Source: Escherichia coli (GTDB lineage: Bacteria > Pseudomonadota > Gammaproteobacteria > Enterobacterales > Enterobacteriaceae). From it: a stretch of 64,000 bases of DNA. The notes below the pieces were generated by a model that had not been told where the DNA came from, did no database searches, and saw only the letters and a list, made by a program, of their open reading frames with translations. Positions 19,294-27,944 of this stretch are shown piece by piece; the stretch's first letter is position 1; each line of letters begins with the position of its first letter. The stretch lies in the NCBI RefSeq assembly GCF_003018255.1, contig NZ_CP027440.1; one strand, written 5' to 3'. The position numbers and the translations under genes are program-made.

Positions 19294-19578
19294 TTAAACA
19301 GGTAAAAAAGAGACCAACCTTAAACCATCCAAATCTACCGGAGTACGCCTGTTTACCCCAAATGTCTGGAACTCAAATCCCGATTCCGTATTCGTAGCCC
19401 ATGCCATCACCACATTGCCTTCTTCCGCCAGTCCAGATATTTGTTCCCAGATCATTTCACGGACTCTTGCGGATACATCACCTACATACACCCCTGCACG
19501 TACCTCCAACAACCAGATGGCTAATCTGCCTCGTAAGCGCGAAGGTACATTTTCAGTGACCACGACCAACATACTCAT
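19294..19578 (-). CDS. cas2: CRISPR adaptation endoribonuclease Cas2
   Basis: Start placed at [12 protein letters not shown], giving 94 aa; the longer ORF overlaps the cas1 3' end. Confidence 0.9.
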
Positions 19579-19579
19579 C

Positions 19580-20497
19580 TCAGCTACTCCGATGTCCGGC
19601 ATCTCCCAGAGAAACGGGAAGTGGAATAGCAACAGGCTGCGCATCTTCAGGTGGGGCCGGCGGCTGTATTTCCCCAGCAGCAAGCACGTCCTCTATAAGC
19701 GGAATCAATTTGACTAATGTTTTACTACTGCGAAAAATATCCCTGCACGCCAAACGGACTTCCCGGTCCGGCTCACCAGGAATACGACGCGCTATCTCAA
19801 AAGCTTTCGGTACAACAGTGTCAAATTTAATGATGTCCGCGATATCGTAAACAAAGGAAAGAGGCTTTCCTGTATGCACAAACCCAATAGCTGGTGCATA
19901 ACCAGCTGCAAGTATCGCCGCTTCAGTTACGCCATATAAACAAGAAGTTGCAGCGCTAATGCATTGGTTGACCGTATCGCCCTTTTCCCAGTCTTTCGGA
20001 TCGTAACGACGTCCATTCCATTTCACCCCGTATTGCTTCGCCAGAAGTACATAGGTTGCTCGCACACGACTTCCTTCTATACCTCTGAGTTGCTCTACGG
20101 AGCGCCGGGCAGGCGCAGGTTCTCCAAACCGAAGTTCAAACATTTTACGTACGACCTTCAGACGCAAATCTTCATCCAGAGCAAGTTTTGCCTGATAGAG
20201 CAGCTTATCTGAACGCGCACCACCAGGCTGACCAGAAGCATAAACACGAACGCCCGCTTCCCCCACCCATACCAATAATGTTCCAACTTGCGCAGCCAGG
20301 CGTACAGCTGCATGCGAAACCCGTGTACCAGGTTCCAACATGATGCAGGCAACCGAGCCAACAGGAATATGAGTGCGGATCCCTGTCTTGTCGATAAGTA
20401 CAAACGCGCCATCTATTACATCGATCTGCCCATATTGCAGAAAGATCATGGAGACGCGATCTTTGAGTGGAATGGGATTAAGGGGAAGCCAGGTCAT
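19580..20497 (-). CDS. cas1: CRISPR integrase Cas1
   Basis: Start placed at [23 protein letters not shown], giving 305 aa. Confidence 0.95.
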
Positions 20498-20512
20498 TTT
20501 ATTACACCTCAA

Positions 20513-24863: not shown

Positions 24864-25205
24864 TTGTTCTCCTTCATATGCTCCGACATTTCTCCTGCAT
24901 TTCTATGCGTCGGCACACTTCCGTTATCGGTAAAAACAAAGAAAAAATACGGCGTAATTAATTCAATAATCACATTCACTGCAAAAATATATTCATTGGT
25001 TTAATACAATTAACCTATACATATATTAAGATGTGTTGAATTGTTTAAAGACAATAATGCATGCATTTCAAATCTGCAAGTTATTCGTTTTATTATCAAA
25101 GAAATTTTTAGTTATAATAATTACCATAAATTTTATTACATAAAATATTCATACTGTGAATATAAAATCTCATACCGGGAAATTAAAAGAAGATGTACAT
25201 TGTGC
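24864..25205 (-). promoter_or_regulatory. cas3-casA intergenic region holding the cascade operon promoter (Pcas); expected H-NS-bound AT-rich DNA
   Basis: About 340 bp of very AT-rich sequence upstream of casA; promoter and H-NS/LeuO control are taken from established knowledge of the E. coli I-E locus, and no exact -10/-35 was called. Confidence 0.55.
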
Positions 25206-25234
25206 ACTTTCCCTACTTAAGTAGGGATAAACCG
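25206..25234 (+). repeat. solitary degenerate CRISPR-repeat-like hairpin, sense on the plus strand (antisense to cas genes and arrays)
   Basis: ACTTTCCCTACTTAAGTAGGGATAAACCG against the canonical sense repeat GAGTTCCCCGCGCCAGCGGGGATAAACCG: same length, 19/29 identical, terminal GGGATAAACCG identical, 6-bp stem and 4-nt loop kept by compensatory changes. Confidence 0.6.
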
Positions 25235-25277
25235 TTATTGGTCTTGTTATCGTCATTGATACCAATCATTCCCGAAG

Positions 25278-27944
25278 TTATTTGGGATTTGCAGGGATGA
25301 CTCTGGTCATCCCTTCATCCCGAGTGTAGGTAATAACAATATTATTACCCTGCCAGATCCATCCATCCTGATTCTGTTTCCCTTCCAGCCAAAGTAACCC
25401 ATCTTCATCTACTACTTCAGAAAAATTACGTTTCCAGGTGAAGGGTACATTGACGCGATTAAGTGCTAACGCCTCATACTGCTGTTCATGACTTAGGTCC
25501 TCGTAGACCTGGCCATCGAGCAGTTGTTTACCTGAAGACGTTTGTAAATAAGGCAATAATGGCAGGCTCATTTCCCCATCCCTCGTTACCGCAAGAATTG
25601 TTTCATCGTTATCCTGCAAGCTATATTCTTCAGCCCACTGCAGAACCTTGCGAGCCTTGAACCTCTTTTCACACTCAGCGCTTTCAAACTTATCCATGCC
25701 TTTGATGACCCATTCTGGCTCATCCATTTCAGCATCATCGTAAATGCTATCCAGCCATTGCCGGTAGGCATCGGGGAAAAATAAGGATGCTCCATTAAGT
25801 TCCTCAATATGTTGCTGCGTCCGCCACATGACTCTAACGTTGCTATAAATATGCTCATGTCGTCCGTAACCTTCGCCATCAGGCAGCAAAACGGTGGCAA
25901 GAGGAACCTCAAAACCAGCGGGACGATATTTGCGATGATGGCGATGTAAACGGCCCAATCGTTGGAAAAGTAAATCTGCGGGGCAATGCTGAGTAATTAA
26001 CCAATCAAAATCAACGTCGAGTGATTGTTCCACGACCTGGGTGGCGACAAGTATCCGTCCAACATTTCGCTTCCCATTTTTGCCGAAATTGCTAATAACT
26101 CGATTCTCTTTTTCACGACGATCGTTCAGCGTAAAGCGCGCATGAAACAAATCTATATCTACTTGCGTGTTATTTAGTTCCTTTAACCGTTGGTGGCATA
26201 GCTGTGCAACATCAACCAAATTGCAGATAAGACAGACTTGTGCACCCGCATTTGCCGCTACGATCATTCGCTCTAACATCCTAAGGTCAGGTAACATGTC
26301 AGCTAAATAAATAGGTTCTGGCCGAATCGAAAAGCGGGGCGGGAGTTGTTCTGAATGAGCTAACAGATCAAAACGTTGTGCACCATTCACACCTCGCCAG
26401 TTAATGAGTGGATATGCGGAGTTATTTTCCTCTGGATCTGTATGCAGACCATAAGTATCCAGAAGTTTCTGTTTTTGTTTCATTGGTAGAGTTGCGGAAA
26501 GAAGAATAACACTCCCCCCCACATCAGCCTGAGCCTTGAGCACAGCCTCCAGCAAGCCGTTCATATACGTGTCGTAAGCATGAACTTCATCAACAATTAA
26601 AACACTTCGACCAATTCCCAAACCACGGATAAAGCGGTGTTTAACTGGCAATACCGATATCAACACCTGATCAATCGTGCAAACGCCGATTTGCCCAAGA
26701 AACACTTTCTTATTGCTTTGTGACAACCACTGACAACACTGAACCCATGCTTCTTCTTGCCCCTGCTCAGTAAATGCGCGTGATTTTATTGATTGAAAAA
26801 GGTGGTTAAAACGTGAATTACCATGAGCAAGAATAAGATTTGGGGAGGTAAATAAACGGCTCGCGTTCGCTTCCATTCTGCTGAGCATTGCATTTGCAGT
26901 AGCTTGTGTAGGGAGGGCAAAAATAACACTATCCGCAAGTTGTTGGTCAATAAGTTTCCAGGCATAGGCCAGCGCAGTTTCAGTTTTACCTGAACCCGTA
27001 GGTGCCTCTATTACCGTCAGCCCGGGCGCTACTGGAAGAGCATCAACTAACACTTGTAATTGTCTGGGTTGATAGCCATTGTCCAGTAGAGCATGAACAC
27101 CTTCATAACATCGCTTATTTGATACAAGGCCGCTCAACTCCAATACCCGGCTCGCATCCTGCTGTCGGTCCTGGAAATACGTTCTTAGAGCATTTATGTT
27201 GGAAGGTGCATCCTCTTTAAACAGAAAGGTATTCGTTGTAGTCCAGGAGCCTAACCAGTCAGCAAGCGAGCAAAAACCTGCTAACAGTGATGAACAATCA
27301 GGTGGTATATCGTTTATAGATAACCCGGCTGGCGTTAAAAATAATGCTTCGAGTACAGATATCCACTCCTCACGAGCCTGTTTATCTTGCGCAGCATAAG
27401 ATGCCAGAGAAGCTGGCATTTCCCAACGCGACTTATCTTGATCCTGGGAATGTAATATAAAACCATGATGTCCTGTAACAGCCTCTACCCATGGAAACCA
27501 GGACTCATAAGGATGAGGAGCGGCATCAAAAAAACTGAAAAAATCCCCGGGAGATTGCTCTGAAAGTGAATCCTGGTTAAACCAATACAGACCGGCTGCA
27601 CCATGATTAAATTTACGGCACATTTGTGTTGATGGACCATTAAGTGATGGCGTTGCAGGATTTAATTTCAGCCAACTTTCTGCTGATTTATATTGGAATC
27701 GTATATCAAACTTTCCGATATCATGAAGGGCAATGAAAAATAACAGCCAGGCTTTCACCTTCTGTTTTGATAGCATTTCATTTCGGCAAAAAGCATTTTG
27801 TAGTACGACTGATTGATCCCACCAGCAATCTGCAACAGCTGCAACATCCAGGCAATGATAAATCAACAGATGAATATCATTTCCTTTCGTCAGGCTTTTT
27901 GAGGATTTCCCCCAGTAATGACATATATATTTAAAAGGTTCCAT
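25278..27944 (-). CDS. cas3: Cas3 HD nuclease / SF2 helicase (type I signature protein)
   Basis: 888-aa ORF with HD-domain N-terminus (HCLDVAAVADCWW...) and helicase motifs (GSGKTE, DEVH). Confidence 0.95.
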   Translation of the reverse strand: MEPFKYICHYWGKSSKSLTKGNDIHLLIYHCLDVAAVADCWWDQSVVLQNAFCRNEMLSKQKVKAWLLFFIALHDIGKFDIRFQYKSAESWLKLNPATPSLNGPSTQMCRKFNHGAAGLYWFNQDSLSEQSPGDFFSFFDAAPHPYESWFPWVEAVTGHHGFILHSQDQDKSRWEMPASLASYAAQDKQAREEWISVLEALFLTPAGLSINDIPPDCSSLLAGFCSLADWLGSWTTTNTFLFKEDAPSNINALRTYFQDRQQDASRVLELSGLVSNKRCYEGVHALLDNGYQPRQLQVLVDALPVAPGLTVIEAPTGSGKTETALAYAWKLIDQQLADSVIFALPTQATANAMLSRMEANASRLFTSPNLILAHGNSRFNHLFQSIKSRAFTEQGQEEAWVQCCQWLSQSNKKVFLGQIGVCTIDQVLISVLPVKHRFIRGLGIGRSVLIVDEVHAYDTYMNGLLEAVLKAQADVGGSVILLSATLPMKQKQKLLDTYGLHTDPEENNSAYPLINWRGVNGAQRFDLLAHSEQLPPRFSIRPEPIYLADMLPDLRMLERMIVAANAGAQVCLICNLVDVAQLCHQRLKELNNTQVDIDLFHARFTLNDRREKENRVISNFGKNGKRNVGRILVATQVVEQSLDVDFDWLITQHCPADLLFQRLGRLHRHHRKYRPAGFEVPLATVLLPDGEGYGRHEHIYSNVRVMWRTQQHIEELNGASLFFPDAYRQWLDSIYDDAEMDEPEWVIKGMDKFESAECEKRFKARKVLQWAEEYSLQDNDETILAVTRDGEMSLPLLPYLQTSSGKQLLDGQVYEDLSHEQQYEALALNRVNVPFTWKRNFSEVVDEDGLLWLEGKQNQDGWIWQGNNIVITYTRDEGMTRVIPANPK

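Follow-up and report, generated by a model that had tools for sequence, protein, structure and literature searches.

Positions 19294-27944 of a 64,000-nucleotide stretch of Escherichia coli DNA (contig NZ_CP027440.1; the window, in what follows, is that whole stretch) encode a complete and intact CRISPR-Cas system of type I-E (CRISPR, short palindromic repeats that are clustered and regularly interspaced). We consider it highly probable (about 0.88) that this locus works as its counterpart in E. coli K-12 does and that, in addition, a degenerate two-repeat mini-array in the gap between cas3 and casA probably serves the system in autoregulation. The locus itself is the textbook E. coli type I-E system, already described, and nothing in it departs from that description. 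What the analysis shows is the identity of the genes and their intactness, the retention of their catalytic motifs, purifying selection, spacers that derive from phages, and a mini-array together with its target.

Results

Eight genes of a type I-E system

The open reading frame (ORF) listing places eight co-oriented minus-strand ORFs at these positions, corresponding to cas3, casA/cse1, casB/cse2, casC/cas7, casD/cas5, casE/cas6e, cas1, and cas2 (Table 1). Gene starts were taken from K-12 and from the annotation of the identical sequence of E. coli JNE23-011 by the Prokaryotic Genome Annotation Pipeline (PGAP); a 310-aa ORF with a TTG start (cas1), a 129-aa TTG ORF (cas2), and a GTG ORF (casD) are upstream extensions of the genes and were set aside. 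All eight genes open with ATG behind a plausible ribosome-binding site and close with a terminal stop, with no stop in between. Their order is the canonical cas3-cse1-cse2-cas7-cas5-cas6e-cas1-cas2, followed by an adjacent co-oriented array, with junctions of +414 nt (cas3/casA), -8 (casA/casB), +12 (casB/casC), +2 (casC/casD), -14 (casD/casE), +15 (casE/cas1), and +1 (cas1/cas2).

The original prediction had described all eight genes as full length and free of frameshifts and premature stops, and base-for-base alignment to K-12 bears this out, with 0 indels and 0 internal stops; the 8-nt casB/casA and 14-nt casE/casD overlaps that it gave are exact. The array reads in the crRNA (CRISPR RNA) sense (GAGTTCCCCGCGCCAGCGGGGATAAACCG) on the minus strand and is therefore co-oriented with the cas genes, again as had been claimed. 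The description of a single cas operon stands only for casABCDE-cas1-cas2, which run together; a 414-nt, 34% G+C gap with the casA promoter region lies between cas3 and casA, so that cas3 stands alone and the locus comprises two transcription units.

Identification of these ORFs as the named type I-E subunits, for which the original prediction had proposed profile searches, was examined with the NCBIfam type I-E models at their curated cutoffs and with Pfam families, and every assignment was confirmed. Each of the eight proteins scores above the curated cutoff of its NCBIfam I-E model and covers essentially all of that model. The Pfam cutoffs are likewise passed by all eight, model coverage being partial only for Pfam Cas1. 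Cas3 matches NF007248 with 1606 bits (cutoff 569) over residues 1-882 and contains the Pfam domains Cas3_HD (11-235), DEAD (309-491), and the Cas3 C-terminal domain (567-671). The large subunit CasA matches NF007247 with 904 bits (cutoff 576) over residues 1-502 of 502 and scores 533 bits, above cutoff, against TIGR02547. CasB is recognized by TIGR02548 (55.5 bits, cutoff 28.5) and by PF09485, CasC (Cas7e) by TIGR01869 (423 bits, cutoff 178), CasD (Cas5e) by TIGR01868 (282 bits, above cutoff), and CasE (Cas6e) by TIGR01907 (268 bits, above cutoff). The adaptation proteins follow suit, Cas1e matching TIGR03638 (375 bits, cutoff 216) and Cas2e matching both TIGR01873 (139 bits, cutoff 33) and PF09707. 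Structure matches add to this picture: CasC aligns at full length with the E. coli Cascade structures 4qyz, 4tvx, and 5h9f, and Cas1 with 3nkd and 5ds4, which are structures of Cas1 or Cas1-Cas2.

Table 1. Coordinates in the window of the genes, arrays, and cas3-casA gap elements of the type I-E system.
Feature	Positions	Strand	Remarks
CRISPR array by cas2 (CRISPR2.1/CRISPR-I)	18366-19188	-	14 repeats of 29 nt, 13 spacers (twelve 32 nt, one 33 nt), 61-nt period
CRISPR leader	19189-19293	-	between cas2 stop and first repeat
cas2 (Cas2e)	19294-19578	-	94 aa
cas1 (Cas1e integrase)	19580-20497	-	305 aa
casE (Cas6e pre-crRNA endoribonuclease)	20513-21112	-	199 aa
casD (Cas5e)	21099-21773	-	224 aa; start ATG, not upstream GTG
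casC (Cas7e backbone subunit)	21776-22867	-	363 aa
casB (Cse2/Cas11 small subunit)	22880-23362	-	160 aa
casA (Cse1/Cas8e large subunit)	23355-24863	-	502 aa
cas3-casA intergenic region (casA promoter region, Pcas)	24864-25277	.	414 nt, AT-rich
predicted target of mini-array RNA	25078-25098	+	AAG motif (25078-25080), then TTATTCGTTTTATTATCA
degenerate two-repeat mini-array, creR-like	25206-25295	+	opposite to cas genes
first repeat-like unit	25206-25234	+	ACTTTCCCTACTTAAGTAGGGATAAACCG; perfect 8/8 5' handle ATAAACCG
spacer-like segment	25235-25265/6	+	about 31-32 nt; begins TTATTGGTCTTGTTATCG
second repeat-like unit	25266-25295	+	cas3 stop codon inside its loop
cas3	25278-27944	-	888 aa; HD nuclease fused to superfamily 2 (SF2) helicase; separate transcription unit
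two-repeat remnant	44143-44232	-	near second array
lone partial repeat (GGGATAAACCG)	44253-44263	-	near second array
second array, same repeat type	44736-45069	-	between ygcE and queE; has 6 repeats and 5 spacers; uses same Cas proteins

Catalytic residues and purifying selection

Cas3 retains its HD motif (LHDIGK, H74/D75), Walker A motif (GSGKT, K320), DEVH box (452-455), and motif III (S483/T485); E141, H208, and D221 are present in Cas1 and H20 in Cas6e. None of the 65 amino acid substitutions that separate the eight proteins from those of K-12 falls on any of these positions. Inactivating substitutions in the HD or DEVH motifs of Cas3, named in the original prediction as what would overturn it, were sought on the same alignment and none was found. 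Mutagenesis supports the roles of the Cas3 residues (H74A, K320N, S483A/T485A; PMC6897959) and documents the importance of D221 in Cas1 (D221A; PMC4081107).

The pooled ratio of non-synonymous to synonymous divergence (dN/dS) from K-12 is 0.145, with values of 0.06 for cas1 and 0.12 for cas3; the cas alleles have therefore diverged under purifying selection. Residues that we take to contact DNA are likewise present, namely Cse1 T125, F129, N131, and K268 (the last three presumably contacts to the protospacer-adjacent motif, PAM) and Cas7 K45, K137, K138, and K141. Two further supposed contacts, Q355 and K49, are A355 and R49 in the sequence; as neither position differs from K-12, the supposed identities are mistaken, and no weight is placed on them here.

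Arrays and phage-derived spacers

The canonical repeat folds into 4 unpaired nucleotides, a 7-bp stem, and a 4-nt loop, and nearly all of the leader beside the first repeat (19190-19293) is identical to that of K-12 MG1655, at 104 of 104 positions. Both ends of the array by cas2 carry spacers that match phages. For the oldest (18395-18426), a gene shared by phages P1, P7, and SJ46 gives a 100% match; the trinucleotide flanking it there, CTG, differs from ATG by one base. The newest (19128-19159) agrees at 28 of 32 positions with the tape-measure gene of Dhillonvirus coliphages, three of the four mismatches falling in seed positions 1-8; its flank is AGG, which we take to be a permissive PAM. 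These two protospacers (AGG and CTG) were the only ones found; the target of the mini-array carries AAG. A search of the window with all 19 spacers for self-targets gave a best match of 21/32, which is the chance level.

A mini-array and its target in the cas3-casA gap

The plus strand of the gap, opposite to the cas genes, holds an element that the original prediction overlooked. There GGGATAAACCG recurs as an exact 11-mer of the repeat, for which the chance expectation is 0.07 per window, and around it lies a degenerate mini-array of two repeat-like units that enclose a spacer-like segment. Both units fold as the canonical repeat does, with the same 4 unpaired nucleotides, 7-bp stem, and 4-nt loop, despite changes on both sides of the stem.

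RNA from this element would find a target within the gap itself. Of the 15 positions in 1-18 that engage in base pairing, 14 agree between the segment and the PAM-flanked site. Mismatches occur at 6, 9, 12, and 18; all but position 9 are every-sixth positions, which are unpaired in type I Cascade complexes. Among 6421 PAM-flanked sites in the window this one is the best (the next best scores 11), and 0 of 5000 shuffled spacers reach its score of 14/15. It lies 146 nt from the mini-array and 218 bp upstream of the casA start. Compared with K-12, the gap differs at 7 of 414 positions, among them segment position 12 and target position 17; the latter change adds one pairing position, making the complementarity slightly better than in K-12.

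A repeat-like hairpin with the handle occurs at the same place and in the same orientation in Citrobacter amalonaticus, two Pantoea species, Edaphovirga cremea, and a Methylobacter metagenome-assembled genome. Four of these five related loci have a different segment of their own and their own AAG-flanked site in the gap, matched at 13-14 of 15 positions, a score reached by 0-1 of 2000 shuffles; the mismatches are mostly at positions 6 and 12, and also at 18.

Just past the mini-array, a strong hairpin (GGGATGAC-TCTG-GTCATCCC, 25293-25312, plus strand) lies antisense to the 3' end of cas3, and similar hairpins follow the mini-array elements of Citrobacter and Pantoea. It may be a terminator of the mini-array RNA, or it may reflect coding constraint on Cas3.

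Although we found the mini-array independently, it is not presented as a new finding, as its prediction in E. coli I-E precedes ours: for the gap between cas3 and cas8e of E. coli I-E, Shmakov et al. (2023) predicted a mini-array that runs against the direction of cas3, with an AAG-flanked target that overlaps the H-NS site upstream of Pcas (PMC10120712). With E. coli Cascade as the effector, a Salmonella I-E element of this kind (creR) brought about repression of its casA promoter (bioRxiv 10.1101/2023.03.10.532045). The element in the window resembles the mini-arrays and CreR RNAs of type I systems in that its first unit keeps the 5' handle, its second retains the hairpin, and its AAG-flanked, seed-anchored target, matched in part and with every-sixth-position mismatches, lies near the cas8e promoter. 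It differs from described CreR elements in the overlap of its second unit with the stop codon of cas3, and its segment of about 31-32 nt exceeds the 23-27 nt that a type I-F survey reported as typical of bacterial CreA/CreR. CreR function has been demonstrated for the Salmonella I-E and Pseudomonas I-F1 elements, whereas that of the native E. coli element is a prediction.

In K-12, a promoter situated immediately downstream of cas3 is reported to produce an 'anti-Pcas' transcript of 150-200 nt, of unexplained role, which overlaps the cas3 transcript (PMC7074321). We propose, tentatively and at somewhat short of even odds, that the mini-array is the functional core of anti-Pcas: its RNA would be processed by Cas6e and would guide Cascade to the predicted target, giving feedback on cas expression once H-NS repression is lifted, and the changes at segment position 12 and target position 17 would tune that repression. 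The proposed identity of the anti-Pcas transcript with the mini-array RNA is our own; this link, the comparison of alleles, and the co-variation of segment and target across species would be what the present analysis adds to the prediction in the literature.

The promoter region and its expected silencing

G+C content is 34% in the gap (0.34 over positions 25000-25499), and 407 of its 414 positions are identical to the K-12 gap. The K-12 gap holds the casA promoter, which H-NS represses and LeuO relieves (reviewed in PMC4782391); LeuO and LrhA activate this promoter, CRP modulates it, and cas3 is regulated separately (PMC4782391, PMC12968389). From the identity across the whole gap, the window would be expected to carry the H-NS, LeuO, and CRP sites mapped in K-12 (PMC4782391, PMC12968389, PMC10120712). 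The H-NS silencing that the original prediction called likely is accordingly a well-founded expectation from homology to K-12; in the strain of the window the locus would probably be held in the same repressed state.

Discussion

Weighing the alternatives

Several observations weigh against the view that the locus works as in K-12 and regulates itself through the mini-array. Locus L008, among the five related ones, yields no significant target for its mini-array. A scan of the gap for sigma-70 promoters and terminators gave 2 promoter-like sites where shuffles give 2.7, and since it does no better than shuffles it cannot locate Pcas or anti-Pcas. The CTG beside the P1/P7 protospacer is not a canonical PAM. 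Comparison of the array by cas2 with that of JNE23-011 reveals only internal gain and loss of spacers, the two leader-proximal spacers being common to both, and thus no sign of recent acquisition; slow array turnover is known for E. coli and fits this pattern. Finally, casC carries an R46H substitution (codon 46, window positions 22730-22732) in the motif SSQSLKRAMRKS, whose arginine is kept in 24 of 25 Cas7 homologues that range from K-12 to distant metagenome genomes.

The alternative that keeps most weight concerns the mini-array. The hairpins of the gap could have no guide function and be decayed relics of repeats, or else a stem-loop that closes the cas3 mRNA at its 3' end, and the match of segment to target could arise from AT-richness. 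The last Cas3 codons (CCC AAA TAA) do constrain the second hairpin in its 3' half, the sequence of the gap is rich in AT and low in complexity, L008 lacks a significant target, and for function in E. coli the literature offers only a prediction. Decay would nevertheless have had to spare a 5' handle that is perfect at 8 of 8 positions and to leave both stems with seven pairs through changes on both sides, and AT-richness fails to produce the 14/15 match beside a canonical AAG in any of the 5000 shuffled spacers or at any of the 6420 other sites. In four other species, moreover, the segment and the AAG-flanked site that it matches both differ from those here yet occupy corresponding places, the mismatches clustering at positions 6, 12, and 18, and the Salmonella I-E element did repress the casA promoter through E. 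coli Cascade. We therefore regard a relic as unlikely, while granting it a real share of the possibilities.

A second alternative accepts the genes as intact in sequence and holds the system to be functionally impaired through Cas7 R46H, or immunologically idle and kept for something other than ongoing adaptive immunity. It draws on the near invariance of arginine 46, on the absence of spacer turnover at the leader end relative to the closest genome, on casB, where all three differences from K-12 are non-synonymous, and on casC, with a dN/dS of 0.56; the system of K-12 has been characterized as silent in transcription, and its role in the biology of the cell as a matter of debate (PMC12248084). 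With 3 and 6 substitutions, however, casB and casC provide too few changes to show relaxed selection, and they stand against an overall dN/dS of 0.145 with strong constraint on cas3 and cas1. Every catalytic residue defined by mutagenesis is kept, the spacers derive from real coliphages, and histidine 46 also occurs in the distant homologue L018 and so may be tolerated. No literature on a role of Cas7 R46 was found, the matches being reference-list numbers and not the residue. Impairment or idleness thus appears improbable. The earlier statement that the locus looks functional is upheld as far as the intact genes and retained catalytic motifs go, and it acquires a caveat in this substitution within a nearly invariant motif, the effect of which may or may not be felt.

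That the ORFs are misassigned and form no type I-E system at all is scarcely conceivable, as 8 of 8 exceed the curated I-E equivalog cutoffs, about 2- to 6-fold, PGAP annotates the identical DNA as an I-E locus, and CasC and Cas1 match E. coli structures at full length.

Relationship to K-12, JNE23-011, and other E. coli

The nearest described relative is the I-E locus of K-12 MG1655 (ygcB/cas3-casABCDE-ygbT/cas1-ygbF/cas2 plus CRISPR-I), a variant that Diez-Villasenor et al. 2013 call 'cas-EK', with which the window shares 97.5% DNA identity. The chromosomal site (iap ... cysH), the eight genes, their order and lengths, the junction spacing where checked, and the T-type repeat are common to both. 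The amino acid substitutions are distributed as 30 in Cas3, 10 in CasA, 3 in CasB, 4 in CasC (including R46H), 6 in CasD, 1 in CasE, 5 in Cas1, and 6 in Cas2. Divergence from K-12 is patchy, amounting to 3-5% in cas3, cas1, and cas2 (up to 4.6%) and to about 0.5% in casB, casC, and casE, and the spacer content is entirely different.

Against JNE23-011 (NZ_AP045067.1), in contrast, positions 19200-28000 are 100% identical, all eight proteins are the same, and none of the cas genes is flagged as a pseudogene in its annotation. The flanking chromosome of JNE23-011 is only 98.5-99% identical to the window, and its array has 10 repeats, compared with 14 here, with differing internal spacers; the strain of the window is therefore distinct from JNE23-011 and shares its cas allele. 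When the array was compared with complete E. coli genomes, none had the same array, and repeat matches dominated the ranking. Full identity of the module against 98.5-99% in the flanks, together with the patchy divergence from K-12, suggests that the cas module may have been exchanged by recombination.

The array by cas2 is chimeric, in that its ten leader-proximal repeats are of the T variant (GAG..., GAGTTCCCC...) and its four distal ones of the A variant (GTG..., GTGTTCCCC...), where K-12 has a single leader-distal A-type repeat. These repeat variants are associated with two types of E. coli cas-E (PMC3737337). The mixture, taken with that association, suggests a past exchange that would have involved the cas-leader module.

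Matches to positions 19200-28000 occur in 1222 of 5426 complete genomes of E. coli, roughly one in five; all of them are chromosomal, and insertion sequences (IS) interrupt some of the copies. The locus matters little beyond its correct annotation. As an intact natural allele with 65 substitutions, Cas7 R46H among them, it could serve as a comparison to K-12, and the slightly better target complementarity of its predicted autoregulatory mini-array makes it a convenient natural variant for asking whether E. coli Cascade regulates its own promoter.

Proposed working of the system

From homology to K-12 we infer silencing, activity, and a function of the mini-array as follows. The casABCDE-cas1-cas2 genes would be driven from the promoter in the gap, which H-NS represses in K-12 until LeuO or LrhA relieves it, and cas3 would be transcribed separately. 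The array would be transcribed from the leader, and Cas6e would cut the repeat hairpins to release 61-nt crRNAs, each of which would assemble with Cse1, Cse2, Cas7, Cas5, and Cas6e into Cascade. Cascade would then find AAG-flanked DNA matches and recruit Cas3, which would nick and unwind the target, and Cas1-Cas2 would add new spacers at the leader end. From the mini-array there would probably arise a guide resembling a crRNA, which would hold Cascade at the partially matching AAG-flanked site without cutting it and so lead to autoregulation.

Genomic surroundings

The neighbourhood of the locus is the standard one of E. coli, flanked as it is by cysDNC-iap and, at the opposite end, by cysHIJ-queD-ygc genes. 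Further along the window, mazG (50555-51346) and relA (51442-53676) lie 95 bp apart (51347-51441), an arrangement also found in JNE23-011; the mazEF toxin-antitoxin genes, which presumably lie between them in K-12, are absent here. An Rfam scan of the whole window gave no match inside the cas locus and a single one outside it, the sok antitoxin RNA (sokX; 28024-28180, minus strand, 104 bits), which lies between cysH and cas3 as it does in K-12.

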